From positions 167,510-210,333 of the IMG/VR virus record IMGVR_UViG_2716884767_000001: a stretch of DNA of 42,824 nt; one strand, given 5' to 3'. Below, piece after piece: positions 17,905 to 33,267 of this stretch. Each line of letters starts with the position of its first letter. The first letter of the stretch is position 1. Source of the stretch: a virus. The position numbers and the translations under genes were made by a program. The notes beneath the pieces are model-generated. The model had not been told where the DNA came from. It saw nothing but the letters and a program-made list of their open reading frames with translations, and searched no databases.

Positions 17905-18105
17905 ATGGCAAACTCTGATAAAAGAATAATTTACATTCAAGATAATGGTATGGTTGCTGTAATGACTCCTTCAGATAATTGTGGTTTGACTGTTGAGCAG
18001 ATACGGGCAAAAGATGTTCCAGCAGGAAAAACATCATATATAGTAGATAAATCAGAAGTTCCTACTGATCGAAGTTTTAGGAACGCTTGGACTTATACAC
18101 CTTAA
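17905..18105 (+). CDS. Small tail fibre assembly-associated protein (66 aa)
   Basis: KDVPAG..SYIVD.SEVPTDRSFRNAW motif; context between fibre genes. Confidence 0.65.
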   Translation: MANSDKRIIYIQDNGMVAVMTPSDNCGLTVEQIRAKDVPAGKTSYIVDKSEVPTDRSFRNAWTYTP

Positions 18106-18110
18106 CGATT

Positions 18111-18371
18111 ATGGGATTTGGAATTGATATGGCGAAAGCCAAAGAAATACATAAAACAAACATCAGAAATGCAAGGGAATCAAAACTTGTTGCTCTTGAC
18201 GTTGATTTTCAACGTGCACTTGAAGTTGGTGCTGCAACTACATCAATTGTTACCCAAAAACAAGCTTTGAGAGATGCCCCTGCTGCTGCTGGTATAACAA
18301 CAGCAACAACAGCACAAGAACTTAAAGCACAGTGGGATACAAGTATTCTTGGTGATTCACCTTACAATTAG
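18111..18371 (+). CDS. Putative tail fibre assembly chaperone (86 aa)
   Basis: ATG at 18111. IRNARE..L..LD...KQALRDAP...W resembles the phage tail assembly chaperone motif. Confidence 0.65.
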   Translation: MGFGIDMAKAKEIHKTNIRNARESKLVALDVDFQRALEVGAATTSIVTQKQALRDAPAAAGITTATTAQELKAQWDTSILGDSPYN

Positions 18372-18380
18372 GAGGAAGAG

Positions 18381-19745
18381 ATGGTAATAAAGGTAAGAAG
18401 TGGAGGACAATGGTTACCAGTTTCTGGAGGAGGTGGAGAACCTGTTGGTACCATTTTAATGTGGGCAGGAGCATCGAGTAATATTCCTCAAGGTTATAAG
18501 TTATGTGATGGAACTGCATTAAGTAGAACTGAATTTAGTTCACTGTTTGCTGCAATTGGAACTGTTAATGGTGTCGGTGATGGTTCGTCTACATTTAATA
18601 TTCCAGATTTGAGAGATAAGTTTGTGGTTGGTGCCACTGCCAGCACTGGGGATACAGCATATCCAGGTGTTTCTCCTGCTGCAACTGGTGGTGATAAAGA
18701 TGCAGTATTGATTGCACACTCCCATCAAACTCCTACTTATAATGGACAAAGTGGTTCCTTTGAAACAGGATATACTTCAGGTGGTTTTGATTATGGCACT
18801 CAAGCACCTCCTACTGAAAAAACAGCAATTGATGCTAATGGTACTACAACCACTGGTGCTTCTGCTACACAAACAGGAACCAATGCAAACTTACCACCAT
18901 ATTATGCACTTTGTTACCTAATAAAAGTATTTAATACAAGGGCAACAATCGAAGCAGGAGCTGGAGCACCACCAGGACCACCAGGACCACCAGGTGCAGA
19001 TGGTACAGATGGTACTCCAGGTTCTCCTTCGACTGTTGCAGGTCCACCAGGTCCACCAGGATCGTCAGGTAATATCCAAACATTCACTTCACCTGGAACT
19101 TGGAATAAACCAGCATCAGGAACTATTGCAAACGTCTACATGTGGGGAGGCGGAGGCGGTGGTGGAGGTAACTCCACCCTGAATGGTGGTGGTGGTGGTG
19201 GCGGATATGCCGAATACAATATCCCAATGACTAGTTTAGCAACCACGGTAACAGTGACTGTTGGTACTGGTGGTGCAGTAAATAATAATGGTGGAACATC
19301 AACATTTGGTAATAGTAATTATCAAGTTGGTGGTGGTAACGCTGGACACAATGGAACTAATCAGGAAACACACGGATATGGTGGAAATGGTGGAAGTCCA
19401 CGAGGAACAGGTACAGGTGGAGAAAGAGGATTTTATAACTCATCCTTCACTGATGATGGAACACACGTAACAGATAACCGTGCACCAGAGTCTACAGAAA
19501 ATGGACACTCTGGTGGTGGAGGAGGATCTGCGGCTGGTTCAACAGGAACAGGTTCTAATGGTGGTGGTGCTTACATGGCTGGAGGAGGCGGTGGTTCTAG
19601 AAGGTATAATCATCAGAAGTCAGGTGGAACAAGTGTAGGAGGAGGAAATGGAGGTGCGTCTGGTGCAGCTGGAAGTGCTCCAGGTGGAGGAGGAGGAGCG
19701 AGAGCTTCAGGTGCTAGGGGTGAGGTACGGGTTGTAGTTCTTTAA
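18381..19745 (+). CDS. Tail collar domain + collagen-like segment + glycine-rich domain protein (454 aa)
   Basis: RBS AGGAGG. PVGTILMWAG..IPQGYKLCDG..LFAAIG..GDGSSTFNIPDLR (tail collar); HSH; NLPPYYAL; GPPGPPG triplets at about 18967-19070; FTSPGTW.KP..WGGGGGGG polyglycine domain. Confidence 0.85.
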   Translation: MVIKVRSGGQWLPVSGGGGEPVGTILMWAGASSNIPQGYKLCDGTALSRTEFSSLFAAIGTVNGVGDGSSTFNIPDLRDKFVVGATASTGDTAYPGVSPAATGGDKDAVLIAHSHQTPTYNGQSGSFETGYTSGGFDYGTQAPPTEKTAIDANGTTTTGASATQTGTNANLPPYYALCYLIKVFNTRATIEAGAGAPPGPPGPPGADGTDGTPGSPSTVAGPPGPPGSSGNIQTFTSPGTWNKPASGTIANVYMWGGGGGGGGNSTLNGGGGGGGYAEYNIPMTSLATTVTVTVGTGGAVNNNGGTSTFGNSNYQVGGGNAGHNGTNQETHGYGGNGGSPRGTGTGGERGFYNSSFTDDGTHVTDNRAPESTENGHSGGGGGSAAGSTGTGSNGGGAYMAGGGGGSRRYNHQKSGGTSVGGGNGGASGAAGSAPGGGGGARASGARGEVRVVVL

Positions 19746-20094
19746 GAAATATATTATAGTCAATAATATAAAACATACTCTCTTTTATACCCATATTTGT
19801 CATTTTTATAATACGGTGTTTACCATCTATCATTCGATACTTACAGTTATATGGGTTTTGACCTATTGTTAATATTCCTGGAAAATTTATGTTACAAGCA
19901 TTATATCTCTCCTCACAAAGATAAGGATTCATATTTTTTCCTTTATATCCTATATTACTAAACTTTATTAATTTTTTTGATTCTTTTTTTAGAAATGGTT
20001 TTATTTTCTCTAGATGTAATACATATTCTTTTTCATCTATCCTCCAATCACCATAAGTAGGATCAACGTTACACCAGTGTCTTCCAATTAACAT
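19714..20094 (-). CDS. ParB/Srx-like domain protein (126 aa)
   Basis: YRMIDGKHR matches the ParB/sulfiredoxin IDGxHR motif. Fills an otherwise empty gap. Likely ATG at 20094 rather than 20277. Confidence 0.65.
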   Translation of the reverse strand: MLIGRHWCNVDPTYGDWRIDEKEYVLHLEKIKPFLKKESKKLIKFSNIGYKGKNMNPYLCEERYNACNINFPGILTIGQNPYNCKYRMIDGKHRIIKMTNMGIKESMFYIIDYNIFLKELQPVPHP

Positions 20095-20095
20095 T

Positions 20096-20653
20096 ATGTT
20101 TGAGAAAAATTCATACAATATATCTATATTTGATGAGATACTCACTGAGAGTTTCATCAAAGAGTGTATGGATAATGCCGACACAAATGAGTATTCATTC
20201 CAAGATGATTGGATAAACAAACTTGACAACCCTTGTTTCAATGATATAATAAATGTAGCTGAAGAAAAAAATTTCATGAAATTTGATAAGAAGTTGGTTG
20301 ATACTTTATTATCAAAAGTAAAGGAAGTTGTTGGTCATGATAGAGTCGAGTCAAGTGGACACTTCATATATCCTCCAACTGGTTATATGGGATGGCATAC
20401 TAATCATACAAATCCTTGCATACGACTTTATATTACATATGCATCGGAAGATAAAAAATCATTTTTTAGATATCGTGACAGAAAGACGAAAGAGATAATT
20501 ACTGATTATGATGACAAAGGATTTACTATAAGAAAATTTTTTATACCACCAGCAAAAAATGGATATTTCTGGCATTGTGTTGGAAGTATGTGTGATAGAA
20601 TTAGTTTTGGTTTCAGAATTAATCCAGAAAATGAATTTACAAAATACATATGA
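20096..20653 (+). CDS. Cupin/2OG-Fe(II) oxygenase-like protein
   Basis: GYMGWHTN...FWHCVGS..DRISFGF; double-stranded beta-helix type HxN...H...RxS pattern. Confidence 0.6.
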   Translation: MFEKNSYNISIFDEILTESFIKECMDNADTNEYSFQDDWINKLDNPCFNDIINVAEEKNFMKFDKKLVDTLLSKVKEVVGHDRVESSGHFIYPPTGYMGWHTNHTNPCIRLYITYASEDKKSFFRYRDRKTKEIITDYDDKGFTIRKFFIPPAKNGYFWHCVGSMCDRISFGFRINPENEFTKYI

Positions 20654-21279
20654 ATATACAAGGCATTTATCCTCCTAACATTGGTTGGTTAGAAATTAAA
20701 TTAAATGATATTGAGATGAAACATCTCTGGAATTGTTGTGAAGATCACAGAGGAAATAAAAAACCTTTTCTGGCAGGAAATATTACCAACAGTCAGTCTA
20801 TTGTAGATAAAGATAATTGGTTTTTTGATAATGTTTTAATGAAATGTTTTAAATCTTATGGGGAAGATTTTGGTAATCTTGGTGAGTCCTTCCCTACAAG
20901 TCATCCTCACCCGTATTTTTTGAGTTCTTTTTGGGCAAATTATCAAAAAGAAACTGAATTTAATCCTTTACACACACATCCTAATTCAATTTATAGTTTT
21001 GTTATTTGGATGAAGATACCTACACGTCACGAAGATCAAAAACAATTAGAAATTGCATCAGATTCAAATTCTACTATTATATCAAATTTTCAATTTGTTT
21101 ATACTGATGTATTGGGTGATGTGAAATCATACGTTTATCATATGTCTCCAGAATGTGAAGGAACTATGTTGTTTTTTCCATCTAATTTACATCATCAAGT
21201 TTATCCATTTTATAATTGCAAGGAAGAAAGAATTAGCTTATCAGGAAATATTGCAATGGATACGAGTAAAATATATTAA
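20650..21279 (+). CDS. Putative 2OG-Fe(II) oxygenase (HxH type)
   Basis: FNPLHTH...SFVIW...EGTMLFFPSNLHHQVYP...ERISLSGN. Confidence 0.8.
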   Translation: MNIQGIYPPNIGWLEIKLNDIEMKHLWNCCEDHRGNKKPFLAGNITNSQSIVDKDNWFFDNVLMKCFKSYGEDFGNLGESFPTSHPHPYFLSSFWANYQKETEFNPLHTHPNSIYSFVIWMKIPTRHEDQKQLEIASDSNSTIISNFQFVYTDVLGDVKSYVYHMSPECEGTMLFFPSNLHHQVYPFYNCKEERISLSGNIAMDTSKIY

Positions 21280-21280
21280 T

Positions 21281-21826
21281 ATGATACAAATTTTACAAAA
21301 CTCTCAAAGTGAAAACTATAAAGTTTTAAAGAAAAATATTTTGGGTGAATTTTTTCCTTGGTTTTACTATGATCATACAACAGACCTAGCACCTGAGAAG
21401 GATGGTCATGAAAATATTCCTAATTTATCCCATTGTTTTATTTCAAGACCAGAATTCTGTGGGTGGTCAAAACAAGATTCTGTTATGCATGAACTAGCAG
21501 TTAAAGTAGTTAGAGAAATTTTATCTGAAAATGAATTTCCTCCTGAAGATAATTTTATACTAAGATTAGCAACTAATTGCATGTTTCCAAGACAAGGAGC
21601 ACAATTTTCTTTACCACACACAGATCATCGTTTTCCACATCTTAATTTTATTACATATCTAACTAATTCAGGTGGCAGCACTTTTGTCGAAGGTGTTGAG
21701 CATAAACCAGAGGAGGATCAATCAATTTTATTTACTGGTGAACACTATTTACAATTACCACAAAAAGAGAGAAGAATTGTTTTGGTTGCAACTATTATGG
21801 ATATAACAAATAATTTTAATGCATAA
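21281..21826 (+). CDS. Putative 2OG-Fe(II) oxygenase
   Basis: PHTD...NFITYL...GGST...GEH...RRIVL; ATG at 21281 just after the upstream stop. Confidence 0.7.
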   Translation: MIQILQNSQSENYKVLKKNILGEFFPWFYYDHTTDLAPEKDGHENIPNLSHCFISRPEFCGWSKQDSVMHELAVKVVREILSENEFPPEDNFILRLATNCMFPRQGAQFSLPHTDHRFPHLNFITYLTNSGGSTFVEGVEHKPEEDQSILFTGEHYLQLPQKERRIVLVATIMDITNNFNA

Positions 21827-23249
21827 TATCGTTAGTATATTTGGTGGACATGATGCTAATATTACATTTTTTAATTCCATCACAAAAAAATATCATATTA
21901 TTGAAATTGAAAGGTTAACAGGAGAAAGATTTTTTCAACTTAAAAAAAATTCTGATGAATATATAAAGAACATTTTAGAGCAGTGTCAGAATATTGCAAC
22001 TAATTTTTGGGGAATTGAAAATGATTATGATACTTTATTGATAGATGCAAGATGGAAAAGAAGAGGAGTCCCTGATGTTGTATATCAAGTTTTTAATTCT
22101 AAAGAAGTAAAAACAATATCTAATCATCATGATAATCATGCGTATTGTGCATACTATCAATCTCCTTACCGAGAAGCATTAATTGTATCTTATGACGGTG
22201 GAGGTGATGGTCAATCATTTAATTTTTACTATGTAAAGGGTGATGATATGAAACTTATTGAGTCTTTACCATTAAATCTAGGTAGAGAGTATTGGAAGTC
22301 AGCTTCAAGAATTAAAGATATTGTTGATAACAGTAAGACAAGACGAGAATATGCTGGAAAGATGATGGGATTATCTGCTTATGGTAAAGTTAATGAACAA
22401 TCTAAACTAGATGTTGACATTGCAGCAACAGCACAAAAAAACTTTGCGAATAAATTATTGAGTAATTTAGGAAGACATATTACAAATATTCCGATTATAT
22501 TAACAGGTGGATGTGCACTTAATGTTTTAGTAAACGAAAAAATTAAACAAAAATATAATAATCTAGTCTTTGTACCACCTAATCCACATGATGGTGGATT
22601 ATCTATTGGACATATGTTTAATTTAATTAAACCTGATAAACGAGTAGATGTCACTTATTCTGGCATCCCTCTTTTAGACAGAGATAAATTATCTAATTAT
22701 ATTGAGGAATATAATGCAGTGAAAGTAAGCAAGATGGAAATTGCTGAAAAATTAAAAGAGGGTAAAATTATTGGATTTGTATATGATGATTCGGAAATTG
22801 GTCCCCGTGCATTGGGTAATCGTTCTATTGTTTGTGATCCATCTTATCCTGATATGAAAGATAAACTGAACTCAAAAGTAAAATTTAGAGAGTGGTATCG
22901 ACCTTTCGCACCATTTTGTAGGAAAGAGATGGCACAGAAATATTTTGAGACAAGAGATTATGAAAATTTAGAGTATATGAGTTTTGCACCAAAAGTAAAA
23001 ATAGATAACATTTCTGCTGTTACTCATATAGATAGAAGTGCGAGGTTGCAAACAGTAACAGAAACAACTCATAAACATTTTTATGACTTACTAAAAGAGT
23101 TTGGTAAAATATCTAATGTTGAGGTATTGTTAAATACCTCATTTAACATAAAAGGAAATCCGATTTTAACTAAAATAAGTGATGCTATTAATATATTGAA
23201 TAATACAGAATTGGATTACGTTATTATCGAAGATTACCTATTTAGTTGA
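21819..23249 (+). CDS. Carbamoyltransferase (NodU/CmcH/TobZ family)
   Basis: GHDA, ERL, HHDNHA, DGGGD, GKMMGLSAYG, GGCALNV, HDGGLSIG, EIGPRALGNRSI, KFREWYRPFAP, THIDRSARLQTV, LLNTSFN. Confidence 0.92.
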   Translation: MHNIVSIFGGHDANITFFNSITKKYHIIEIERLTGERFFQLKKNSDEYIKNILEQCQNIATNFWGIENDYDTLLIDARWKRRGVPDVVYQVFNSKEVKTISNHHDNHAYCAYYQSPYREALIVSYDGGGDGQSFNFYYVKGDDMKLIESLPLNLGREYWKSASRIKDIVDNSKTRREYAGKMMGLSAYGKVNEQSKLDVDIAATAQKNFANKLLSNLGRHITNIPIILTGGCALNVLVNEKIKQKYNNLVFVPPNPHDGGLSIGHMFNLIKPDKRVDVTYSGIPLLDRDKLSNYIEEYNAVKVSKMEIAEKLKEGKIIGFVYDDSEIGPRALGNRSIVCDPSYPDMKDKLNSKVKFREWYRPFAPFCRKEMAQKYFETRDYENLEYMSFAPKVKIDNISAVTHIDRSARLQTVTETTHKHFYDLLKEFGKISNVEVLLNTSFNIKGNPILTKISDAINILNNTELDYVIIEDYLFS

Positions 23250-23259
23250 AAATTACATA

Positions 23260-23847
23260 ATGAATGATTTAATACAAATTATAAAAGTTCTTGAACCTAA
23301 TGAGGTTGATGAGGTTAACAAATATATTAATACATTAAACTTTAAATCTAGTACAGTGCTCGTAAAGGGTAATAATCAGGATATAAGTCCTGTTCGCACA
23401 AGCACTGGTGCAATAATGAATGATAATCATGAATTAATAAAAAGTTTTCATTTGAAAATCAACCAAGCTCTAGATGAATATAAGAGACGTTTGATTGATA
23501 TTCATGAAAATTTTCAATACTATCCTGTGCCTGGTGGATATGATACTCACTCTTGGAGAGAGGGCATACAAGTTTTACAATATGAAAAAAATCAAGAATA
23601 TAAGTTTCATCATGATGTTGCTGACTATAAAGAAAAACGGGAATTTTATAGAACAATATCAGTTATCGTTTATTTAACAGATGACTTCAAAGGTGGTGGA
23701 ACTTTATTTCCACATATGAGATATAAACCTAAACCTGGTTATGCCTTGATTTTTCCCTCAAATTGGTGTTATCCTCATGCTGGTGAACCCGTAATTGAAG
23801 GAATTAAAAGGATTGCTGTGACTTGGTATTATGTTGAACGAAATTAA
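23260..23847 (+). CDS. Prolyl-4-hydroxylase-like 2OG-Fe(II) oxygenase
   Basis: FHHD...RTISVIVYLTDDFKGGGTLFP...FPSNWCYPHAGEPV..GIKR. Confidence 0.88.
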   Translation: MNDLIQIIKVLEPNEVDEVNKYINTLNFKSSTVLVKGNNQDISPVRTSTGAIMNDNHELIKSFHLKINQALDEYKRRLIDIHENFQYYPVPGGYDTHSWREGIQVLQYEKNQEYKFHHDVADYKEKREFYRTISVIVYLTDDFKGGGTLFPHMRYKPKPGYALIFPSNWCYPHAGEPVIEGIKRIAVTWYYVERN

Positions 23848-23861
23848 CTCAAATTTGAATA

Positions 23862-23869
23862 CATAAATA
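23862..23869 (+). promoter_or_regulatory. T4-type late promoter (CATAAATA)
   Basis: ATAAATA in the intergenic gap, 31 nt before the 1873-aa structural gene. Confidence 0.6.
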
Positions 23870-23900: not shown

Positions 23901-26900
23901 ATGCCACTGAATAAGTTAGATAATTTCTTAAAAAACGTAGAAGGTCGTATTCTTTATGTAAGTCCAAGTGATTTAGATGCAAGTGATGCGATGTCAAATC
24001 AGGGTAATTCCCAAGCAACACCATTTAAAACCATTCAAAGGGCACTGATTGAGTCAGCAAGATTTTCTTATGTTCAAGGTAATAATAACGATATAACAGA
24101 AAAAACAACAATATTATTGATGCCTGGTGAGCATATTATTGATAATAGACCAGGATACAAGATAAAAAAATCAGGAAACAATGCACAAATTTTAAATCAA
24201 GCAGGTGGAGTTGTTTCAACAGACTCATTATCTTTAAATTTAGACTCTAAGTTTGACCTTACAGTTGAAGATAACATTTTACACAAATATAATAGTGTTC
24301 ATGGTGGAGTTATTGTTCCAAGAGGAACTTCAATTGTTGGACTTGATTTAAGAAAAACAAAAATCATTCCAAAATATGTTCCAAACCCAACAGATTCATC
24401 AGTTCCTAATTCTGCAATTTTTAGAATCACAGGTGCCTGTTATTTTTGGCAATTTTCTGTATTTGATGGAAAGGAGAATGAGTTAGTATATACAGATAAT
24501 ACAATATTCACCAGTAAATTAAGCACTCCTACTTTTTCACACCACAAATTAACAGTATTTGAATATGCAGATGGAGTAAATTTAAATGAACAAACAGAAT
24601 TAACAGATTTAAATATGTATTACTATAAGCTTTCATTAGCTTATGGTACTGCGACAACAAATCGAAATATTATTGACAAATTTCCTGCAAGCACTGATGG
24701 TTTTGCTGCAAGAAGACCTGAATTTGAAATTGTTGGTGCATTTGCGGCGGATCCAATTTCAATTACAAGTCTCATATCAGGTGATGGATCAAACGTATCA
24801 CCTGTTGTAACTGTAACAACACAACAGGATCACAATCTCGATGTAGGAACCCCAATTAAAATATCTGGTGTTATTCCTCTTGAATATAATATTTCAGCAA
24901 AGGTAACCAGTGTCAGTGTGACTAATAAAAAAGTATTCACGTATGCTCTCGATAATGTTCCTGATGAGTTACCAGCAACTGCTTCTAATGTAAGTGGTGC
25001 AACTGTCACAGTTGAAACTGACACAGTTGGAGGAGCATCACCTTATATCTTTAATATATCGTTAAGATCTGTTTATGGTATGAATGGTATGCATGCCGAT
25101 GGATCAAAGGCAACTGGTTTCCGTTCAATGGTTGTTGCACAATTTACTGGAGTTTCATTACAGAAAGATGATCGTGCTTTTGTAAAATATAGTAAGACAG
25201 GTAGAGATTATGATGGATTGATCATAACCCCAGTTTTTGATGAAAGACTTTCATCAGAATCATCTGCAACCGACACCGAGAAAGTATTTCACTTAGATTC
25301 TGATGCAATCTATAGAAATGGATGGGAGACAAGACATGTAAAAATATCAAATGACTCTGTATTACAAATTGTATCTGTATTTGCAATTGGATATGGTATT
25401 CATTTTGAAGCAAAATCGGGTGCCGATGCTTCTATCACTAACTCAAACTCTAACTTTGGTCAATTAGCACTTGTATCTGACGGATTTAAGAAAAATGCAT
25501 TCCAAAAAGATGATCGAGCTTTCATTACTCATATATTACCACCAAGGGCAATAACTTCATCTGAAGAAAATATTGATTGGGTTACCATAGATATTGATAA
25601 AACAAAAACTGTTAATAATGATAAAAGATTATATTTGTTTGGATTTACCTCTGAAGATATATTACCACCGTCAGTGACTCAGGGTTTCCGAGTTGGTGCC
25701 AAAGTTAATGATGTTTTATTTGTAGATATTGCTGGTGTGGAAAAATCAGCAAATATTTTGATGGAGGATGGCACTGCCACACCTTCATTGTCAAGTGTCA
25801 AAACAATAGAGGTTGGAGAACCATCTGGAAGTCTGTTTACAACATCAGATGGATCAGCACACAAACTGTCAACAGGTGAAAAAGTAATTGTTATCAGTGA
25901 CGATGGTGACTTACCAGAGAATTTAGATGAAAAAACAGTATATTTTGCTATTGTTTTATCTCCTAGCACATTTAGATTAGCATCTTCAAAAACTAACGCA
26001 GATAATTCTGAATTTATCAGTGTATATAAAGGAACAAATTTAAAAGTATTAAGTCGTGTTAGTGATAAAGATTCTGGTGACTTAGGACATCCTGTTCAAT
26101 TTGATGGAACACAATGGTTTATTAATGTTCAAACAGGAAACAATATATTTACAAGTATTGCATCACTTACTGGTAGAACCGAACCATCATTCGTAAAGAG
26201 AATCTCAGACACGAGATCTCTTGATGAAAAAATTTATAAGGTTAGACTTGCAATACCAAAAGAAATTTCAAACTCAAAGAATCCAGAAAACGGTTTTGTA
26301 ATTCAAGAATCAAGTTCAACTGGTGTTCGAGGATCTTCTGATTTTATTAAAAATGATGCTCTTACTAGATCAGATTTTGAATTTAAAAGAAATCCTAGAT
26401 TTATTAGTAGTTGTACGTTCAATAATGCAACAGATATCATCACAATTCAAGCAGAGAGACCTCATAATTTACAAATAGGTGATTTAGTTACCATCAAAAA
26501 TATTAAAGATGGTGGTTCGGGTGGTAGTGCTTTGGGTGAAGATAATAAAGGATATAATGGAGAATTTACTGTCAAAAATATACCAAATAGTTTGACATTT
26601 GAGTATGAAACCACAAGAGATAATTTAGGTGCTTCTGCAACAAATGATTTTAGTATAGAGGATACATCTCTTCCTAGATTTGAGAGGACTGATCTAAAAT
26701 CAAATATTTATTTGTTTAGAAATACATTAGTTTCAGAATATATTGATGCCACACAAGATGGTGTTTATCAAGTATTTGCTCTTAATTCCAGTAATGATAT
26801 TCAAGAGGAATATACTGATTTAAATTATAGTCAAAATGTAGTTGATTTATATCCTCAATTAGATCGAGATAATGTAAATGAAAATCCCCAAGCATCTAAA

Positions 26901-29522
26901 TCTTTTGCTGTAAGATCTCCTTTAGGACAGGTAGTTACAAACGATCCTTTAAAGAGTCTTACAAGAGAGACAAATGATAAATTACTTAAATCCATTGGAA
27001 TAGGTCAACCTTTATTCTCATTCACAGACAATACTACAACAGGGATAGTTTCATTTACTACTGAACATAATTTTGCGGGTATAATGACTGCTACACTTCA
27101 CTCTGGTGGAGCAAACTATACACCAAATTCTGGTGTGGCAACCTATCGTAATGTAAAAGTATTCAACAGCACTACTCAAAATGATTCTACGTGGAATGGA
27201 ACATTATCTGATGTCATAGTTTCTAATGGTGCTGTGACATCATTTGAAATTACAAATACTGGATCTGGTTGGTCTGCAGGAAATAAAGGATATTTTGATG
27301 CAAATCGAATAGGTGCTGGTAATGGAGTGGCAATTTTGGATGGTAATGTCTCTGGTGCAGGTTTGACATCAGGAAACATTGGTGTATCGAGTGATTTAGT
27401 TATTCAATTTACAGGTGTAGGAACAGCATCCGACTCATATTTTAGATTAAAAGAAGTAAACGACAAGAAACAGATTACAATTCATAAAACAGGTGCAGAT
27501 GTTGATCCTATATCAGATCAATATGCATTTACAGTTAGTTCATCATCTAAGGTAGATACTGAAAGTTTCTCAGATGGGTTAAAAACTATCACAACATTTG
27601 AACCTCATGGACTCGTTGCTGGAAATAGATTCCAATTAAATAATTCATCAAATGTCAACCAAGGTTCATATATCGTTAAAACAAAGGTTGGTGTCACAAC
27701 ATTTACATTTGAGTTAGCATCCGATATAAGTGTTGATAATGGATTCATACTTAAACATGGATTATCAGCAAATGACGGTGTATCAGATTCTGGTCAAGAG
27801 AATTTATCAATTCGTGGTGTAGAATTATTTGACAATGAACATGCAAAATTAAGTGCTCAGATGGGATCAGGCGTTGGAATTGCTACTGTTGATACTACGA
27901 ATACACATAATTTACTTCAAAGATTCCCATACGGATCATATTTACTAATTGATGAGGAGATACTTCGAGTATCTACAAATACTTTACTTGGAGTTAATAA
28001 TGATCAAATTTCAGTAATTCGTGGAGTTTTTGGTACGGTTATCAAAAATCACGCAACTGGATCACTTGTTAAAAAAATTAAACCATTCCCAATTCAATTT
28101 AATCGACCATCAATTTTAAGAGCATCAGGTCATACATTTGAATATCTTGGTTATGGTCCTGGTAACTATTCAACTGCACTTCCACAAGTTCAGGTTAAAA
28201 CAATTTCTGAGAAGGAAGAGTTCTTATCACAGTCACAAGAAAGAGCAGGTGGTGCTGTTGTTTACACTGGAATGAACAACAAAGGTGATTTTTATATTGG
28301 AAACCAGAAAAAGTCAGCACTCACAGGTGAGGAGACATCTTTTGATACTCCGATACCATCAGTTACAGGTGAAAATCCTGGTAGATTGAGTGTTGTATTT
28401 GATGAAACAACAATCAAAGAAAGACTTGTAGTTGAGGGTGGTAAATCTAAGACATCATTATCTGAATTTGATGGACCTGTTACATTTAACAAGGAAGTTC
28501 AACTTAAGGATGCAGTTAAAATCAAAACAACAACGGATTCCACAAGTTCAACAACAGGATCACTCATAATATCTGGTGGTGTGGGAATTGCAAAAACTGC
28601 CAATTTACCTGATGATGCTGCAATAAAATTTGGTAATGGTGGAGATTTAGAAATTTTCCACGGTAGTGGTGGAAATTATCCAAATACAAATGTTATAAGA
28701 ACAACAAATACAAACACGTTATTATTTGAAACGGCTCAGGGTGGATTTGCATTAAATAATCGAGTAGGTGATGCTGCAAATAATTTTGAAAATATGATCA
28801 CTGCGAGTCCTAATGATTCAGTTGATCTTTTCTTTAATGGTACACGTAGATTAAAAACCACAAACACAGGAGCTGTCGTAACTGGAATTCTAACTGCTAC
28901 ACAATTTAAAGGTGATGGATCTCAGTTAGACGGTCTTAATAATAATCAATTATTAGATAGTAATAGCACAGTAAGAGCAGAAGCCACTACATCTGGTTTA
29001 ACTATCACTGGACAGTTGACAAACAATGGTAACATACAACTCACTTCTGCAAATCCAGAAATAGAATTAAACAATGGAGGTCCAAGATTTAGAGTTCCAT
29101 CCGCAAACGTACTTACTATTCATACTGGTAGTGGATTTGGTAGTGCCGAAAATGAAAGGTTACGTGTTAACACAACTGGTATTACGGTCACAGGATCAGG
29201 TACATTTACTGGTGATGTGATTGCATTTAGTTCATCTGATATGACACTTAAAAAAGATATATCACCCATAAAAAATGCACTTGACATGGTTAATAGTATT
29301 AGTGGTAATACATTTACTTGGAATACAGGACTGACACCATATGAAAATGGTACAAAGGACACTGGTATACTTGCTCAAGAAATTGAGGCACTTGGATTGC
29401 CTGGTGTTACAATTACAAGAGGTAATGGTGTGAAAGCAGTTCGTTATGATAGATTAATTCCTGTTCTGATTGAGGCAGTTAAGGAATTAACTTCTAAAGT
29501 AAACTCTATTGAAAACAAATAA
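23901..29522 (+). CDS. Large virion structural/tail fibre protein (1873 aa) with C-terminal S74-like chaperone
   Basis: Cyanophage-type N-terminus MPLNKLDNFLKN..GRILYV..PFKTIQRAL; repeated T...H.L..G motifs; C-terminal SSDMTLKKDI...GILAQEIE...VRYDRLIPVLIEAVKEL. Confidence 0.85.
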   Translation: MPLNKLDNFLKNVEGRILYVSPSDLDASDAMSNQGNSQATPFKTIQRALIESARFSYVQGNNNDITEKTTILLMPGEHIIDNRPGYKIKKSGNNAQILNQAGGVVSTDSLSLNLDSKFDLTVEDNILHKYNSVHGGVIVPRGTSIVGLDLRKTKIIPKYVPNPTDSSVPNSAIFRITGACYFWQFSVFDGKENELVYTDNTIFTSKLSTPTFSHHKLTVFEYADGVNLNEQTELTDLNMYYYKLSLAYGTATTNRNIIDKFPASTDGFAARRPEFEIVGAFAADPISITSLISGDGSNVSPVVTVTTQQDHNLDVGTPIKISGVIPLEYNISAKVTSVSVTNKKVFTYALDNVPDELPATASNVSGATVTVETDTVGGASPYIFNISLRSVYGMNGMHADGSKATGFRSMVVAQFTGVSLQKDDRAFVKYSKTGRDYDGLIITPVFDERLSSESSATDTEKVFHLDSDAIYRNGWETRHVKISNDSVLQIVSVFAIGYGIHFEAKSGADASITNSNSNFGQLALVSDGFKKNAFQKDDRAFITHILPPRAITSSEENIDWVTIDIDKTKTVNNDKRLYLFGFTSEDILPPSVTQGFRVGAKVNDVLFVDIAGVEKSANILMEDGTATPSLSSVKTIEVGEPSGSLFTTSDGSAHKLSTGEKVIVISDDGDLPENLDEKTVYFAIVLSPSTFRLASSKTNADNSEFISVYKGTNLKVLSRVSDKDSGDLGHPVQFDGTQWFINVQTGNNIFTSIASLTGRTEPSFVKRISDTRSLDEKIYKVRLAIPKEISNSKNPENGFVIQESSSTGVRGSSDFIKNDALTRSDFEFKRNPRFISSCTFNNATDIITIQAERPHNLQIGDLVTIKNIKDGGSGGSALGEDNKGYNGEFTVKNIPNSLTFEYETTRDNLGASATNDFSIEDTSLPRFERTDLKSNIYLFRNTLVSEYIDATQDGVYQVFALNSSNDIQEEYTDLNYSQNVVDLYPQLDRDNVNENPQASKSFAVRSPLGQVVTNDPLKSLTRETNDKLLKSIGIGQPLFSFTDNTTTGIVSFTTEHNFAGIMTATLHSGGANYTPNSGVATYRNVKVFNSTTQNDSTWNGTLSDVIVSNGAVTSFEITNTGSGWSAGNKGYFDANRIGAGNGVAILDGNVSGAGLTSGNIGVSSDLVIQFTGVGTASDSYFRLKEVNDKKQITIHKTGADVDPISDQYAFTVSSSSKVDTESFSDGLKTITTFEPHGLVAGNRFQLNNSSNVNQGSYIVKTKVGVTTFTFELASDISVDNGFILKHGLSANDGVSDSGQENLSIRGVELFDNEHAKLSAQMGSGVGIATVDTTNTHNLLQRFPYGSYLLIDEEILRVSTNTLLGVNNDQISVIRGVFGTVIKNHATGSLVKKIKPFPIQFNRPSILRASGHTFEYLGYGPGNYSTALPQVQVKTISEKEEFLSQSQERAGGAVVYTGMNNKGDFYIGNQKKSALTGEETSFDTPIPSVTGENPGRLSVVFDETTIKERLVVEGGKSKTSLSEFDGPVTFNKEVQLKDAVKIKTTTDSTSSTTGSLIISGGVGIAKTANLPDDAAIKFGNGGDLEIFHGSGGNYPNTNVIRTTNTNTLLFETAQGGFALNNRVGDAANNFENMITASPNDSVDLFFNGTRRLKTTNTGAVVTGILTATQFKGDGSQLDGLNNNQLLDSNSTVRAEATTSGLTITGQLTNNGNIQLTSANPEIELNNGGPRFRVPSANVLTIHTGSGFGSAENERLRVNTTGITVTGSGTFTGDVIAFSSSDMTLKKDISPIKNALDMVNSISGNTFTWNTGLTPYENGTKDTGILAQEIEALGLPGVTITRGNGVKAVRYDRLIPVLIEAVKELTSKVNSIENK

Positions 29523-29537: not shown

Positions 29538-31538
29538 ATGGCAAATTATACCAAATCATTTAATTTTAGAAACGGTGTTCAGGTCGATGATAGTAATTTT
29601 ATTGTCAACTCTGTTGGACTGGTTGGAATTGGAACTACAATACCAGAAAAACGTTTAGATGTTCGTGGTAGTGCAAGCATAACAGGGATAACAAATTTAT
29701 CTGGAGCAATTATAAGTGGAGTAGTAACATCTGGTAATATAAAAATTGACTCAGTTTCAGGAATTGTTACTGCTACAAAATTTGTTGGTGATGCATCAGG
29801 TCTTACAAATATAGTTGCGATTTCAACAGAAGGATTTATCGCAAATGCTGGTGGACTGTCTACTACTACCAATATTGGTATTGGTAGTGAAATACCAACA
29901 ACTCAATTAGATGTTCTTGGAGATTCTATATTTACAGGCATTACTAGTTTTATTGGTCTTACGACAACAACTGATTTAAAAGCACAAAAATTAGATGTAA
30001 TCGGTGTTTCAACATTCGGAAATGCTGTAGATATTAATTCTAGTGTAGATGTAAGTAATAATTTAGTTGTACAAGGAAGTAGCACATTAGGAAATTCATC
30101 TAGTGATGAACTTATTGTAACTGCTGGAGTGTCAACATTTACTGGTAATATAGATTTAAATGGTAATATTGACGTATCAGGTATCTCAACATTCGGTAAT
30201 AACATTGATGCGAATGGTGATTTAGATGTAAATGGACGAACTGAATTAGATACCACTAATATTAGTGAAACTCTTAACGTTACAGGTATCTCAACGTTCG
30301 GTGATAACGTAACCGTAGGAACTGGTGCAACTGTAGGAATTGGATCAACTGTATTTTTTCCTGATAAGATAAAGGCAATATTTGGTAGTGACCCTTCAAA
30401 ACCAGGTGGAGGAGACTTACACATATATCATGACTCTAGCACTGGACATAGCTACGTTGCTGACAAAGGCACTGGTAATTTAGTGTTACAATCTGATAAC
30501 AAAATTGAAATGATAACATTTAATCAACCAGCTGGTGGTGGTTCAGAAAAAATGTTAGAGGCTTTCAAAAATGATACAGTAAAATTATATTTTGATGGTA
30601 ATACAAAATTAGCAACAATCGGAGCAGGTGTATCCGTCTATGGACAATTAAATGTTGCAAGTTTAAATGGTGGTGCATCTGGTTTGTCATCACACTTTGG
30701 ATCATTGAGATATGGTAACGAGAGTGGTTCCGCACCATATAGCACAAGAAGGTCACTAGATTTAATTAATACTGATAGTGGAAATATTAACTACTATCTT
30801 AACGCAAACGATTTATCAAATACAGGCAATTTCCATTGGCATAAAGGTTTTAATAATGCTCAGTTGATGACCTTAACTGGAATTGGTGGAAGTTTAGGTA
30901 TTGGTATAACATTGCCAACACATAAACTCCACGTACAGGGTAATGCTAAAATATCAGCTGGTGCAACTTTTGGTGGAGATATATTTATTGCTGGTGATGT
31001 ATCACTAACAGGATCAATTGAAGGAAATGTCACTGGTAATCTCACAGGTAATCTCACAGGTAATGTAAACGCAGCATCAGGAATATCCACATTCACCAAT
31101 GTTTCTGCTGGAATTGTAACTGTAACTTCAATAAAAACAGATAAAGTAGGTGTCAACGTAAATGCTGGTTCTAACCCAGTTGAAATAAATTCAGGTAACA
31201 ATAGAGTTTTTGTGTCTGCCACTGGTAATTTAGGAATCAGAACAGATGATACATTTGGAAATTCTTTATTTAATACTGGTGCAACAGTCTCATCTATAGT
31301 TGGTGTAGGGACAACATTAGCCAAATCAGCAGTTGATTTTGCTGATGCTGGAAAAGATATTACAGGAGCATTTGCAAACAAAATGTTCATGCTGCCACCA
31401 AAGATAACTACCAACCAGAGGGATAATCTTACTGGTGTAACCGATGGTGCTTTGATATACAATACAAATGGAAATCAGTTACAAGTTTATATTGGAGGAT
31501 GGGTCGGAATCGGAACTACTACAGCGGTTGACTCATAA
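29538..31538 (+). CDS. Tail fibre-like structural protein (666 aa)
   Basis: VGIGT and GISTF repeats; C-terminal P..TT.QRD.L....GALIYNT....LQVY..GW motif. Confidence 0.8.
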   Translation: MANYTKSFNFRNGVQVDDSNFIVNSVGLVGIGTTIPEKRLDVRGSASITGITNLSGAIISGVVTSGNIKIDSVSGIVTATKFVGDASGLTNIVAISTEGFIANAGGLSTTTNIGIGSEIPTTQLDVLGDSIFTGITSFIGLTTTTDLKAQKLDVIGVSTFGNAVDINSSVDVSNNLVVQGSSTLGNSSSDELIVTAGVSTFTGNIDLNGNIDVSGISTFGNNIDANGDLDVNGRTELDTTNISETLNVTGISTFGDNVTVGTGATVGIGSTVFFPDKIKAIFGSDPSKPGGGDLHIYHDSSTGHSYVADKGTGNLVLQSDNKIEMITFNQPAGGGSEKMLEAFKNDTVKLYFDGNTKLATIGAGVSVYGQLNVASLNGGASGLSSHFGSLRYGNESGSAPYSTRRSLDLINTDSGNINYYLNANDLSNTGNFHWHKGFNNAQLMTLTGIGGSLGIGITLPTHKLHVQGNAKISAGATFGGDIFIAGDVSLTGSIEGNVTGNLTGNLTGNVNAASGISTFTNVSAGIVTVTSIKTDKVGVNVNAGSNPVEINSGNNRVFVSATGNLGIRTDDTFGNSLFNTGATVSSIVGVGTTLAKSAVDFADAGKDITGAFANKMFMLPPKITTNQRDNLTGVTDGALIYNTNGNQLQVYIGGWVGIGTTTAVDS

Positions 31539-32695
31539 TGACATTACCAGGCGTTGGAAGTTCAATATCTTTTGATCAAATTCGAGCAGAATTTGGTGAT
31601 AGAGGCGATAGTCGTTTAGGAAGATATCGTAGAGATGATCCTGATTTTGAAAATGCCTCACCATCTGGAAGCACATTAACAAATCTACCATTAGACACTG
31701 GTATACCAACATCTGGTGAGATTAAGTTTAGTGATTTTCGTGGTAAAAAATTAAATATGGTAGTTGATTATTATACCCTTCCAGAAGGTCAAACAGATAC
31801 AAGTAAAGAAGTAGAAGGTGATAATCAAATGGCTGCGACTTGGAGATATAATAATGTATCGGCAAAAGTGACGGTTGTTGGTGGATTTAGAGAGAGACCT
31901 ATTGGTTCACTTGATGGTAATTACAATCTGACTGCAGAAAATTGGCAAGGTGGTAAAAAAGTATTCGTAAACGTGAATCAAACTGTTGGTGGTAAACAAG
32001 ATGGAGATGTAACTGATGTTGCACTTAGAACTGGAGTTTGGCCAAGTGGCACAGAATTACAAGTGGATATAGGAGCATCAGGGTATCTGACAGGTGCAGG
32101 TGGTAATGGTGGTAGAGCAAATCAAGGTAATTCTAATGATGCCGATGATGGAATAAATGGTACGAGTGCATTAGGAGTTGAATATGCTGCAACTATTAAT
32201 AATAATGGTGTAATAAGATGTGGATATGGTGGTGGAGGAGGTGGCAGTGGAGGATCAAACGACCCATCAGACAAGAGCACCACTGACTTCGGAAGATCTG
32301 GTGGTGGAGGTGGTGGTGGAGCTGGTCTCCCTGCTGGCACTGGTGGTGGAGGTGGTACTGGTGGTTTCAATGGTTCTGGTTTGATAGATGGAGAAGCAGG
32401 TGATGATGGTTCATTATCTGCTGGTGGTGATGGTGGTGATGCTGGTGCAGAAGGAGGTGCAACTGGTGGTGCTGGTGGTGCTGGTGGTGATATAAATGAT
32501 GCCCCTGTGAATGGAACTAGTGGAACTAGAGCAGATGACAGAGCATATAGAAGCACTCCTGGCGCACCTGGTAATGCAGGTTCTGATGGAAAAGCTATAT
32601 ATTTTAGCAGTGAATCTATTGCAAACAATAGCACTATCACAGGAAATACTGTTGGTGGTAGAAATGGAGGTGCTGCAAACGGTTCGTTTAATTAA
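31538..32695 (+). CDS. Polyglycine receptor-recognition adhesin, T-even gp38-like (385 aa)
   Basis: N-terminal ISFDQIRAEFG...IKFSDFRGK. GAGGNGG...AL.V....INNNGVIRCGYGGGGGG resembles the gp38 polyglycine sandwich. Translationally coupled to the fibre gene. Confidence 0.65.
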   Translation: MTLPGVGSSISFDQIRAEFGDRGDSRLGRYRRDDPDFENASPSGSTLTNLPLDTGIPTSGEIKFSDFRGKKLNMVVDYYTLPEGQTDTSKEVEGDNQMAATWRYNNVSAKVTVVGGFRERPIGSLDGNYNLTAENWQGGKKVFVNVNQTVGGKQDGDVTDVALRTGVWPSGTELQVDIGASGYLTGAGGNGGRANQGNSNDADDGINGTSALGVEYAATINNNGVIRCGYGGGGGGSGGSNDPSDKSTTDFGRSGGGGGGGAGLPAGTGGGGGTGGFNGSGLIDGEAGDDGSLSAGGDGGDAGAEGGATGGAGGAGGDINDAPVNGTSGTRADDRAYRSTPGAPGNAGSDGKAIYFSSESIANNSTITGNTVGGRNGGAANGSFN

Positions 32696-32700
32696 TTATT

Positions 32701-33267
32701 ATGCTCACTGATTTTATTTCAATTTATGAAAACGTTTTATCACCTGAATATTGTAAGAACTGGATAGAATATATTGATTACTTAAGACGGGAAGGGTTAG
32801 TTATACAGGAAAATGATAAACTACATGAACGAGATCATGAAACTTTGAACTTTTCGAATGATGATAATTTTGATTTAAATTCATCTGATAAATTAGTAAG
32901 GAATTTTTTACCCTCTGTAAAACAGTGTGTAGATAATTATTTACAAGATTATAGTGTATTAGGAAAATCAAACTTTCTATTGTATGATGTAAAGGCAAAA
33001 AGAATACCGATTTGTGGTGGTTTTCATGCTTGGCACTATGAAAATGCTGCATTTAATACGGCAACTAGAAGATTTGTAGTTCAAGCATATCTCAATACAA
33101 TTAATGAGGGTGGTGAAACTGAGTTTTTATATCAAAATAAAAGAATAAAAGCTGTTGAAGGAACAGTAGTTATTTGGCCAGCAGGGTTTACACACGTCCA
33201 TCGAGGTAATCCACCAATAGGACAAGACAAATATATACTTACAACTTGGGGAATGTTGCAGCAATGA
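32701..33267 (+). CDS. 2OG-Fe(II) oxygenase (P4H-like, HxE)
   Basis: GFHAWHYE...YLN...EGGETEFLYQ...IWPAGFTHVHRGNPP...KYILTTW. Confidence 0.88.
   Translation: MLTDFISIYENVLSPEYCKNWIEYIDYLRREGLVIQENDKLHERDHETLNFSNDDNFDLNSSDKLVRNFLPSVKQCVDNYLQDYSVLGKSNFLLYDVKAKRIPICGGFHAWHYENAAFNTATRRFVVQAYLNTINEGGETEFLYQNKRIKAVEGTVVIWPAGFTHVHRGNPPIGQDKYILTTWGMLQQ

Follow-up and report, generated by a model that had tools for sequence, protein, structure and literature searches.

A putative tail-fibre tailoring module of oxygenase-like proteins and a carbamoyltransferase in a T4-like cyanomyovirus

Background

Gene families for 2-oxoglutarate (2OG) oxygenases and carbamoyltransferases, and their presence in the cyanomyoviruses, are already known (2005-2010), and the hydroxylation of tail-collar and collagen-like proteins already exists as a published prediction (PMC2938197). 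Sullivan et al. (2010; PMC3037559) treated the 2OG oxygenases of cyanomyoviruses as host-like genes of unknown role, with 2OG drawdown and DNA repair as proposals, and placed the carbamoyltransferase with lipopolysaccharide genes; a survey (PMC9301287) finds that viral use of genes like those of prolyl 4-hydroxylases (P4Hs) and other 2OG oxygenases "remains cryptic". Here we consider a run of such genes, in the plus-strand order oxyA, oxyB, oxyC, CT (a carbamoyltransferase gene) and oxyE, in a 42,824-nt window that is the last 42.8 kb (positions 167510-210333) of the 210,333-bp IMG/VR virus record IMGVR_UViG_2716884767_000001 (G000 below), which is rated 100% complete and is of T4-like cyanomyovirus type. 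All junctions between 20096 and 23847 in the window are overlaps or gaps of no more than 10 nt. An initial annotation had seen in these genes a single hydroxylate-then-carbamoylate pathway acting on a collagen-like tail protein encoded upstream.

The locus shares with the set of Sullivan et al. the gene families, the phage group, the multiple oxygenase copies and the sporadic carbamoyltransferases (CTs), and the P-SSM2 order of piuC, a hypothetical gene, a 1908-aa fibre gene, a tail protein gene and, further on, a 193-aa gene matches the order from oxyE to oxyF here. That study does not include the fixed synteny of oxygenase and fibre genes, the link among a Gly-rich tip, an oxyA-type gene and a CT, or the split of CTs into clades linked to fibres and to glycosyltransferases (GTs), all of which are seen here. 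Iyer, Abhiman, de Souza and Aravind (2010; PMC2938197) predicted that tail-collar and collagen-like proteins encoded in bacterial operons are hydroxylated and then sulfated; they also discussed the dioxygenase/halogenase array gp40-54 of Syn9, and for cyanophages they proposed metabolite synthesis. In their operons as in our locus, 2OG dioxygenases stand beside tail-collar and Gly-rich or collagen-like proteins, a second enzyme would cap the hydroxyl, and the pathway is a prediction. The capping enzyme of the bacterial operons is a sulfotransferase, whereas here it would be a TobZ-class CT, with an HxN partner oxygenase, in a phage fibre module.

In its core, its HxD...H...K/R residues and the X-Pro-Gly repeats of its neighbours, oxyE resembles the collagen P4Hs of Bacillus anthracis (3ITQ/5HV0) and of the virus PBCV-1 (vCPH, 5C5T). 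It differs in aligning with them only at residues 99-190, in having a collagen-like stretch of only nine triplets nearby, and in having as its most widely kept neighbour a giant fibre gene without a G-X-Y run. The CT has the YrdC-like C-terminal domain and, by a partial profile match, the Kae1/ASKHA-like N-terminal domain of TobZ, NodU/NolO, NovN, GdmN, CmcH and the phage 5-hydroxymethylcytosine (5hmC) carbamoyltransferase, with the motifs shared with its relatives intact; the phage 5hmC enzyme is accompanied by a dCMP hydroxymethylase of the thymidylate-synthase-like type (Yang et al. 2021; PMC8670742). Compared with these class III O-carbamoyltransferases, the window CT is short (476 aa), lacks an insert of ~42 aa, and has double-stranded beta-helix (DSBH) and fibre genes for neighbours rather than antibiotic, Nod-factor, glycan or dCMP-hydroxymethylase genes. 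T-even phages have Gly-rich adhesin tips of the gp38 type with cognate chaperones (gp38/gp57A/Tfa-type). Those tips too are swappable and accompanied by small travelling genes, with PF16778 domains in the same slots, but the gene that travels with the tip here encodes a DSBH protein that is often coupled to a CT, and we know of no DSBH or carbamoyltransferase enzymes for coliphage tips.

Our literature searches found no description of a fixed synteny of P4H-like and fibre genes, of an HxN family of DSBH proteins behind Gly-rich tips, sometimes fused to a chaperone domain, or of two sets of cyanophage CTs, one linked to glycans and the other a clade linked to fibres and coupled to DSBH genes, and no paper joining a cyanophage tail fibre with a 2OG hydroxylase.

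Results and discussion

A proposed module in two layers

We propose that these enzymes act on the fibre proteins encoded with them and that the genes make up a module for tailoring or maturation of the tail fibre, arranged in two layers; on the evidence below we consider this reading about evenly balanced between right and wrong. In the layer that we take to be old and fixed, oxyE precedes and oxyF follows a block of giant fibre, tail protein and Gly-rich fibre genes, and the two products would most likely hydroxylate residues of the co-encoded fibres, for which the prolines of X-Pro-Gly are obvious candidates. The other layer would be swappable: the segment 19061-23251 would have arrived, as a unit or in pieces, with an adhesin-type Gly_rich_2 tip and genes that travel with such tips. 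Its oxyA and oxyC products would either oxidise or hold the tip, or else a moiety that it carries, and the CT, using carbamoyl phosphate and ATP, would O-carbamoylate a hydroxyl made or exposed there. Stability or host range might change as a result.

The single pathway of five enzymes that had been suggested at first is not what we find, since oxyE and oxyF are long-standing neighbours of the fibre genes at fixed positions, and oxyA, oxyB, oxyC and the CT are replaceable cargo with no counterpart in the nearest relatives. The co-variation of enzymes and fibre genes, which the initial annotation had named as its decisive test, is nevertheless present: 40 of 44 loci have oxyE before the giant fibre gene, oxyA accompanies Gly_rich_2 tips, and the clade of the CT is found in virion modules.

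P4H-like genes around the giant fibre block

The oxyE gene (23260-23847, plus strand) encodes a P4H-like protein of the 2OG-FeII_Oxy_3 family (PF13640, E 3e-15). In a PDB sequence search its core matched the B. anthracis collagen P4H 3ITQ/5HV0 (E 1e-12), PBCV-1 vCPH (E 1e-3) and also a Chlamydomonas P4H; the residues in question are H117-x-D119, a distal His in YPHAG, and KR beyond it. A second 2OG-FeII_Oxy_3 gene, oxyF (32701-33267, plus strand; PF13640 E 1.5e-8; phrog_61), has H112-x-E114 and a distal His in THVH, so that both proteins combine the PF13640 match with an HxD/E...H...K/R pattern. It is an oxygenase gene beyond the four of the run, directly 3' of tail385, and it closes the fibre block in a position that is conserved at 81-91% identity. 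Between oxyE and oxyF, all on the plus strand, lie fibre1873 (23901-29522), which encodes a giant tail-fibre protein (phrog_529, E 0); tail666 (29538-31538), a tail protein gene assigned to the conserved fibre block by phrog_3269 and by synteny; and tail385 (31538-32695), a fibre protein gene (phrog_11439) whose Gly-rich domain is 28-32% similar to the tip of the collar gene described below.

We compared 53 loci with oxyE orthologues of 48-87% identity; like all the loci compared in this work (numbered with an L), they are on marine myovirus contigs, most of them short. At least 1 kb of downstream sequence is available in 44 of them, and a fibre1873 orthologue (45-96% identity) starts 57-623 nt after oxyE in 40 of these 44 and 3.1 kb after it in one more. 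The whole block, from oxyE through the fibre gene, tail666 and tail385 to oxyF, recurs in relatives, P-SSM2 included. In two of the loci (L009 and L012) oxyE begins 16 nt 3' of the collar gene; based on this order and on the presence of GPPGPPG..STVA..GPPGPPG linkers in all collar orthologues, the ancestral layout was a collar gene with an X-Pro-Gly linker, a P4H-like gene and a giant fibre gene. In many of the more distant relatives, the 10 kb upstream of oxyE include large collagen genes rich in GPP. An apparent lack of collagen near oxyE in four close relatives turned out to be an artefact of a threshold of at least five triplets, as their collar genes hold several GPPGPPG runs of three or four triplets. 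The position of oxyE thus supports the idea of a P4H acting on a collagen-like neighbour, although synteny of this kind does not in itself prove the substrate.

The genome has three PF13640 genes and all of them adjoin tail genes. The third (G000 4714-5716, in L149) is directly 3' of a Phage_tail_APC gene and just 5' of the baseplate genes gp25 and gp6. In another locus (L006) an Oxy_3 gene is followed by a 76-aa APC gene and then by a collagen-repeat protein gene.

A replaceable segment with a Gly-rich tip

Nucleotide homology of the window to its closest relatives ends at ~19060-19071, at the end of a GPP linker, and resumes at 23252, 8 nt before the start of oxyE. The segment in between, 19061-23251, holds the Gly-rich tip of collar454, minus126, oxyA, oxyB, oxyC and the CT; it is absent from the closest relatives and its GC content is 0.293, versus 0.35-0.36 in the flanks.

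The collar454 gene (18381-19745, plus strand) encodes 454 aa, with a collar domain at aa 23-82, the GPP linker at aa 193-230 and a Gly_rich_2 tip at aa 240-447. The Pfam matches to Phage Tail Collar (PF07484; E 2e-18, 66.4 bits) and to Gly_rich_2 (PF21722; 30.7 bits against a cut-off of 24.3) both pass their cut-offs, and there are matches to tail PHROGs with E down to 2e-21, so that we assign the product as a tail collar/Gly_rich_2 fibre protein. The collar domain and the Gly-rich tip of the initial description are therefore sound, but its "GPP-collagen" amounts to six plus three G-X-Y triplets broken by STVA (nt 18957-19070), and the Pfam Collagen profile PF01391 has no match at E up to 0.01. 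From its sequence, the stretch is a short collagen-like linker and not a collagen domain; it is nonetheless the sole G-X-Y run of such kind in the 210-kb genome. Relatives of collar454 share its sequence up to ~19060-19071 and have a different tip beyond. As the linker (18957-19070) coincides with the end of homology, it may be a recombination joint at which the collar tip and the downstream cargo are swapped. We looked for a residue conserved across Gly-rich tips that might be a candidate hydroxylation site and found none; an acidic DDDD motif is confined to one subtype of tip.

The enzyme run is itself tightly packed, as had been noticed, but it does not follow the collar gene directly, for minus126 (19714-20094, minus strand) intervenes. 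This gene encodes 126 aa with a DGKHR motif, converges on collar454 with an overlap of 32 nt, and is head-to-head with oxyA, with the start codons 1 nt apart. Its match to phrog_35149 (E 3e-15) and its homologues in other loci (33-74% identity) mark it as a real gene. An alternative minus-strand open reading frame (ORF) of 187 aa, extending to 20277 and requiring a shorter oxyA, was rejected, since residues 1-60 of oxyA are conserved in L047 and only the 126-aa part is covered by the PHROG match. An Atlas search with minus126 gave weak leads only (ParB-CE in 19% of one cluster), and Pfam at E up to 10 gave no match for minus126, oxyA or oxyC. The arrangement of Gly-rich tip, convergent minus126 and divergent oxyA is kept in five other loci (L047, L073, L074, L153 and L154).

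The oxyA gene (20096-20653, plus strand), with 234 homologues, encodes a protein that, by its predicted model (predicted local distance difference test score, pLDDT, 91), has a DSBH fold of the prolyl-hydroxylase class; the top fold matches are PHD2, a Pseudomonas P4H (PPHD) and PBCV-1 vCPH, with template-modelling scores of ~0.55 and E 2e-4. Among 25 aligned relatives the invariant columns are W100 H101 T102 N103, W159 H160 C161, and R168 S170. The invariant H101-T-N103 (nt 20396-20404) has an Asn where the Asp or Glu of the HxD/E triad is expected, and so the protein does not show the 2-His-1-carboxylate facial triad (HxD/E...H) and we do not file it as a canonical Fe/2OG oxygenase. It keeps the distal H160, followed by an invariant Cys, and the R-x-S motif for binding 2OG, and even without the canonical triad it may still work like a 2OG oxygenase. 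The Asp/Asn beta-hydroxylase AspH is reported to bind its iron by two His only, and an Atlas lead for oxyA points to hydroxylases of the Asp/Asn type, which we take as a lead and not as a test. In two relatives of oxyA (P0070 and P0096) there is a fusion to PF16778 Phage_tail_APC, a chaperone domain for tail-fibre assembly; L063 has a gene for an 841-aa Gly-rich protein and, directly after it, one for an oxyA domain fused to PF16778.

The next gene, oxyB (20650-21279, plus strand), belongs to 2OG-FeII_Oxy_5 (PF13759; E 5e-14, 52.8 bits against a cut-off of 27) and to phrog_81. PDB sequence searches with oxyB and with an oxyC profile returned nothing meaningful. The start of oxyC (21281-21826, plus strand) is the ATG at 21281, in place of the GTG at 21155 read earlier. 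Its product is 2OG oxygenase-like: it matches phrog_274 (E 2e-25) and a PHROG common to oxyE and oxyF, and its alignment has invariant columns at H113-x-D115, H155 and R164/R165, as numbered in the protein that starts at ATG 21281 (the alignment itself is numbered one residue ahead). The predicted model (pLDDT 76) matches the folds of 6N1F, AsqJ, vCPH and PHD2, so that model and alignment together give a predicted DSBH fold with HxD...H...R. A profile-profile comparison of oxyC with oxyA was not significant (E 0.06). The early count of four oxygenase-like genes in the run therefore holds, with oxyB and oxyE identified by Pfam and oxyA, with its HTN, and oxyC identified as oxygenase-like DSBH proteins by their models.

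The transcription signals, which are consensus matches only, agree less well with the placement of the run in a late structural region. A predicted sigma-70-like promoter with a 12/12 match (TTGACA, 16 nt, TG-TATAAT with an extended -10) lies at 20223-20250 on the plus strand, inside oxyA, and no late-type TAAATA occurs on the plus strand between 19279 and 23131; a late-promoter-like TAAATA is at 23864-23869 (plus strand), just 5' of the fibre gene at 23901. The run is thus late by its position only. Since the starts of minus126 and oxyA are 1 nt apart (20092-20098), the promoter of each must be inside the other gene.

The carbamoyltransferase and its clade

The CT gene (21819-23249, plus strand), the only one in the genome, encodes a short form of the TobZ/NodU-class carbamoyltransferases, as had been recognized. 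The C-terminal YrdC-like domain matches PF16861 (Carbam_trans_C) with E 6e-59 over profile positions 1-168 of 170, and the N domain matches PF02543 (Carbam_trans_N) with 47.9 bits against a cut-off of 24, over profile positions 120-221 of 346 only. The motifs HHxxH, SYDGGGD, GGCALN and PHDGG, which are probably the catalytic residues, as in TobZ, are conserved with the relatives. Matches in the PDB are VtdB-like 7XB6, NovN, GdmN and TobZ, with E from 1e-42 to 1e-35.

A quick maximum-likelihood tree (IQ-TREE; support by the Shimodaira-Hasegawa-like approximate likelihood ratio test, SH-aLRT, only) assigns the window CT to a clade of 11 rows (support 100), which is itself part of a clade of 48 rows (SH-aLRT 98) with no GT-adjacent or GT-fused row among them. 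The context is known for eight members of the larger clade, and in each case it is a virion module; most of the eight are behind a Gly-rich-tipped fibre and flanked by an oxyA- or oxyC-type gene. In L156, L157/158, L160 and L161 a Gly-tipped fibre is followed by an oxyA-type gene (45-57% identity) and a CT with a 17-nt overlap; in L162/163 the order is Gly-tipped fibre, APC, DSBH-like gene, CT and an oxyC-type gene (45% identity); and L153/154 have the window's own set (Gly tip, minus126, oxyA, oxyB and CT) in another order and orientation. L150-152, also in this clade, combine the CT with gp23 and a Peptidase_S74 fibre. An oxyC-type gene adjoins a CT in L006 as well as in L162/L163. The recurring unit is a Gly-rich fibre tip, an oxyA- or oxyC-type DSBH gene and a CT of the fibre clade, found in at least three gene orders, which speaks for a common function rather than common descent of a single block and suggests that the fibre tip is what is acted upon. 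The P4H-like enzyme had been cast as the partner of the CT; the oxygenases linked to CTs are instead of the oxyA and oxyC types, which makes the Gly-rich tip a likelier target than the X-Pro-Gly linker. In L052 a distant CT (30% identity) does abut oxyE.

Among the isolate phages, the best CT matches (50-53% identity) belong to clusters for heptose or fucose glycans, where the CT gene adjoins a GT4 gene (Bellamy and AG-345-E15) or is fused to one (SynMITS9220M01_208, an intact 839-aa ORF); further sister lineages are GT4-adjacent (P0344) or GT4-fused (P0122 and P0123). The inference that the window CT must act on a sugar as its closest relatives are GT-linked was rejected, however, as it considers isolate phages only, and the metagenomic relatives and the tree show that the nearest outside clade is fibre-linked. 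The GT-linked CTs have an N-domain, acceptor-side insert of ~42 aa that the window CT lacks, and the CTs of the fibre clade are shorter. The genome has its own 17-kb glycan cluster of fucose/mannose type (G000 ~107-124 kb), with GMD, epimerases, GT11, GT6, GT4, a radical SAM protein, a methyltransferase and GT25. Its GT4 (G000 119940-120881; 63-65% identity to the GT4 of CT-bearing relatives) directly precedes a 239-aa gene, with the CT slot between them empty; the window CT lies ~69 kb away and is neither adjacent nor fused to a GT4. The slot (G000 119940-121600; L005 15441-17098) is filled by a CT in AG-345-E15, Bellamy and the P0344 contig.

Two further small-gene families were noticed around CTs. 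A 113-aa DUF7936 gene lies 3' of the CT in the clade of 494-501-aa CTs (L157 8493-8834, L160 5832-6173 and similar loci), with a weak match near the rearranged set in L153/154. In L162 (6272-7309), three tandem paralogues of 107-120 aa with NTWY..N..GRP and GGDPSE motifs separate the CT cluster from a second Phage_tail_APC gene.

Weighing the interpretation

A hydroxylate-then-carbamoylate chain fits the known chemistry of both families, as O-carbamoylation needs a hydroxyl. In its most specific form, the fibre-tailoring proposal would have the oxyA type, possibly a two-His hydroxylase, and the oxyC type hydroxylate residues of the Gly-rich tip, with a dedicated TobZ-like clade O-carbamoylating the protein hydroxyls directly; we consider this form possible but doubtful, and the acceptor for the CT could equally well be a glycan, whether carried by the fibre or located elsewhere. 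Several points weigh against the proposal. We are aware of no precedent for O-carbamoylation of protein residues, and the characterised members of the CT family all act on small molecules, sugars or 5hmC. Longer CT relatives are fused to GT2, HtrL_YibB, O-FucT, deacetylase, epimerase, methyltransferase and sulfotransferase domains and never to a DSBH domain, and the visible neighbourhood of the CT in L150-152 (gp23, a 180-aa gene, the CT and a Peptidase_S74 fibre) includes no DSBH gene and no Gly tip. The oxyA protein lacks the Fe-binding carboxylate and may be no oxygenase at all, homologues of oxyB occur at many unrelated places in genomes (best 80 of 103 related loci), and two of the four Gly-rich-domain genes in the genome have no oxygenase neighbour. 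With a sigma-70-like promoter inside oxyA, position is what speaks for late timing of the run. Fibre modules are hot spots for accessory genes, so that part of the linkage could be positional, and since marine myovirus contigs recombine freely the compared contexts are not fully independent.

One competing explanation is that the substrate of the CT is a glycan made by the 17-kb cluster of the phage itself, which could be located on a virion protein or the host envelope, and that the adjoining oxygenases have separate jobs. The acceptors of the characterised enzymes that are sugars or small molecules, the GT4-adjacent or GT4-fused sister lineages, the carbohydrate enzymes fused to longer relatives, and the retention of the phage's own GT4 and its neighbours around an empty slot, with the fibre-island CT the sole one in the genome, would all suit this explanation. 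We find it fairly unlikely, as the window CT is in a clade (support 98) of virion-module contexts without a glycosyltransferase and outside the GT-linked group, lacks the acceptor-side insert, and shows a translational coupling to oxyA- and oxyC-type genes that recurs in different orders. The genes might instead be accessory cargo in a recombination hot spot, acting on host metabolites or making a small molecule, for instance by 2OG drawdown or secondary-metabolite tailoring. The one to five scattered 2OG oxygenase genes and sporadic CTs of cyanomyoviruses, with the drawdown and repair roles proposed for them (Sullivan et al. 2010; PMC3037559), and the metabolite synthesis proposed for the Syn9 arrays (Iyer et al. 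2010; PMC2938197) are in keeping with such a role, as are the many contexts of oxyB homologues, the low GC of the segment, its absence from the closest relatives, and the lack of a late-type promoter motif before the run. This too seems unlikely to us, given the co-occurrence of Gly-rich tip, oxyA- or oxyC-type gene and CT in at least three orders and orientations, the fusion of oxyA-type domains to a tail-fibre chaperone domain, and the fixed positions of oxyE and oxyF around the fibre block even though oxyE orthologues are only 48-87% identical.

We also considered whether oxyA, with minus126, might be a non-catalytic assembly chaperone on a DSBH scaffold, specific to its tip and aiding its folding or trimerisation. 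Its Asn in place of the Fe-binding carboxylate is invariant, it lies directly 3' of the tip, in the usual slot of fibre chaperone genes, it has relatives fused to Phage_tail_APC, and it travels with its tip. We nevertheless judge this role improbable, since the invariance of both His and of R-x-S suggests that cofactor binding is retained and a chaperone would leave the coupled CT unexplained. The remaining alternative, raised in the initial annotation, is that phage DNA is the substrate and that, for example, a base is first oxidised and then carbamoylated, as in 5-carbamoyloxymethylcytosine. One characterised TobZ-class enzyme of phage origin carbamoylates 5hmC in both DNA and RNA (Yang et al. 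2021; PMC8670742), and there are base-modifying enzymes among the 2OG oxygenases. The complete genome, however, has no PF00303 match, where a control search matched 10 of 14 genomes, and without a homologue of ThyA or dCMP hydroxymethylase DNA modification becomes very improbable. A Tet_JBP search of the genome also gave no match, but its control was equally silent. The best folds for oxyA and oxyC are mostly protein prolyl hydroxylases, with the AlkB family lower, although small-molecule oxygenases such as AsqJ also rank high for oxyC, and the neighbours are all virion genes.

Other features of the window

The window contains two giant fibre genes (2104 aa and 3321 aa), small fibre genes, the enzyme region, the 1873-aa fibre gene and more tail genes, and then helicase and methylase genes. 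Its distant DNA matches are nearly all to T4-like myoviruses of Synechococcus and Prochlorococcus, and megablast against a phage collection gave no match. Just upstream of collar454 is a small gene, g94 (18087-18371, plus strand; phrog_20196, E 6e-36), that is 93-94% identical in L009, L012 and L022 and has a weak, below cut-off likeness to the tail-fibre assembly chaperone domain (PF16778 Phage_tail_APC, E 0.003). The DNA at 18000-18365, which includes g94 and part of a 66-aa ORF (17905-18105), is 69-74% identical to that of the T7-like cyanopodoviruses P-SSP6, 9515-10a and NATL2A-133, and we therefore regard this as a small fibre-associated gene common to myoviruses and podoviruses. The two Gly-rich genes that lack an oxygenase neighbour (G000 129568-131157 and 141267-142202) are both related to the collar454 tip, and the latter is followed by an 80-aa glutaredoxin-like ORF (CPYC).

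Implications

A large share of the planet's most abundant phototrophs is killed by ocean cyanophages, whose fibre tips determine the strains that they infect. Genes for P4H-like and other 2OG oxygenases are routinely counted in marine viromes as cryptic "auxiliary metabolic genes"; if they encode fibre-tailoring enzymes, metabolic readings of these genes would need revision, and host range would be set in part by enzymatic decoration of the adhesin, beyond the adhesin sequence. The case is directly testable, as it offers a defined gene set (a Gly-rich tip, an oxyA or oxyC type and one clade of CTs) together with candidate substrates. If the CT acts on protein, this would be a new kind of protein modification and, were hydroxylated residues carbamoylated directly, the first enzymatic pathway for protein O-carbamoylation, swapped together with the tip that it serves.

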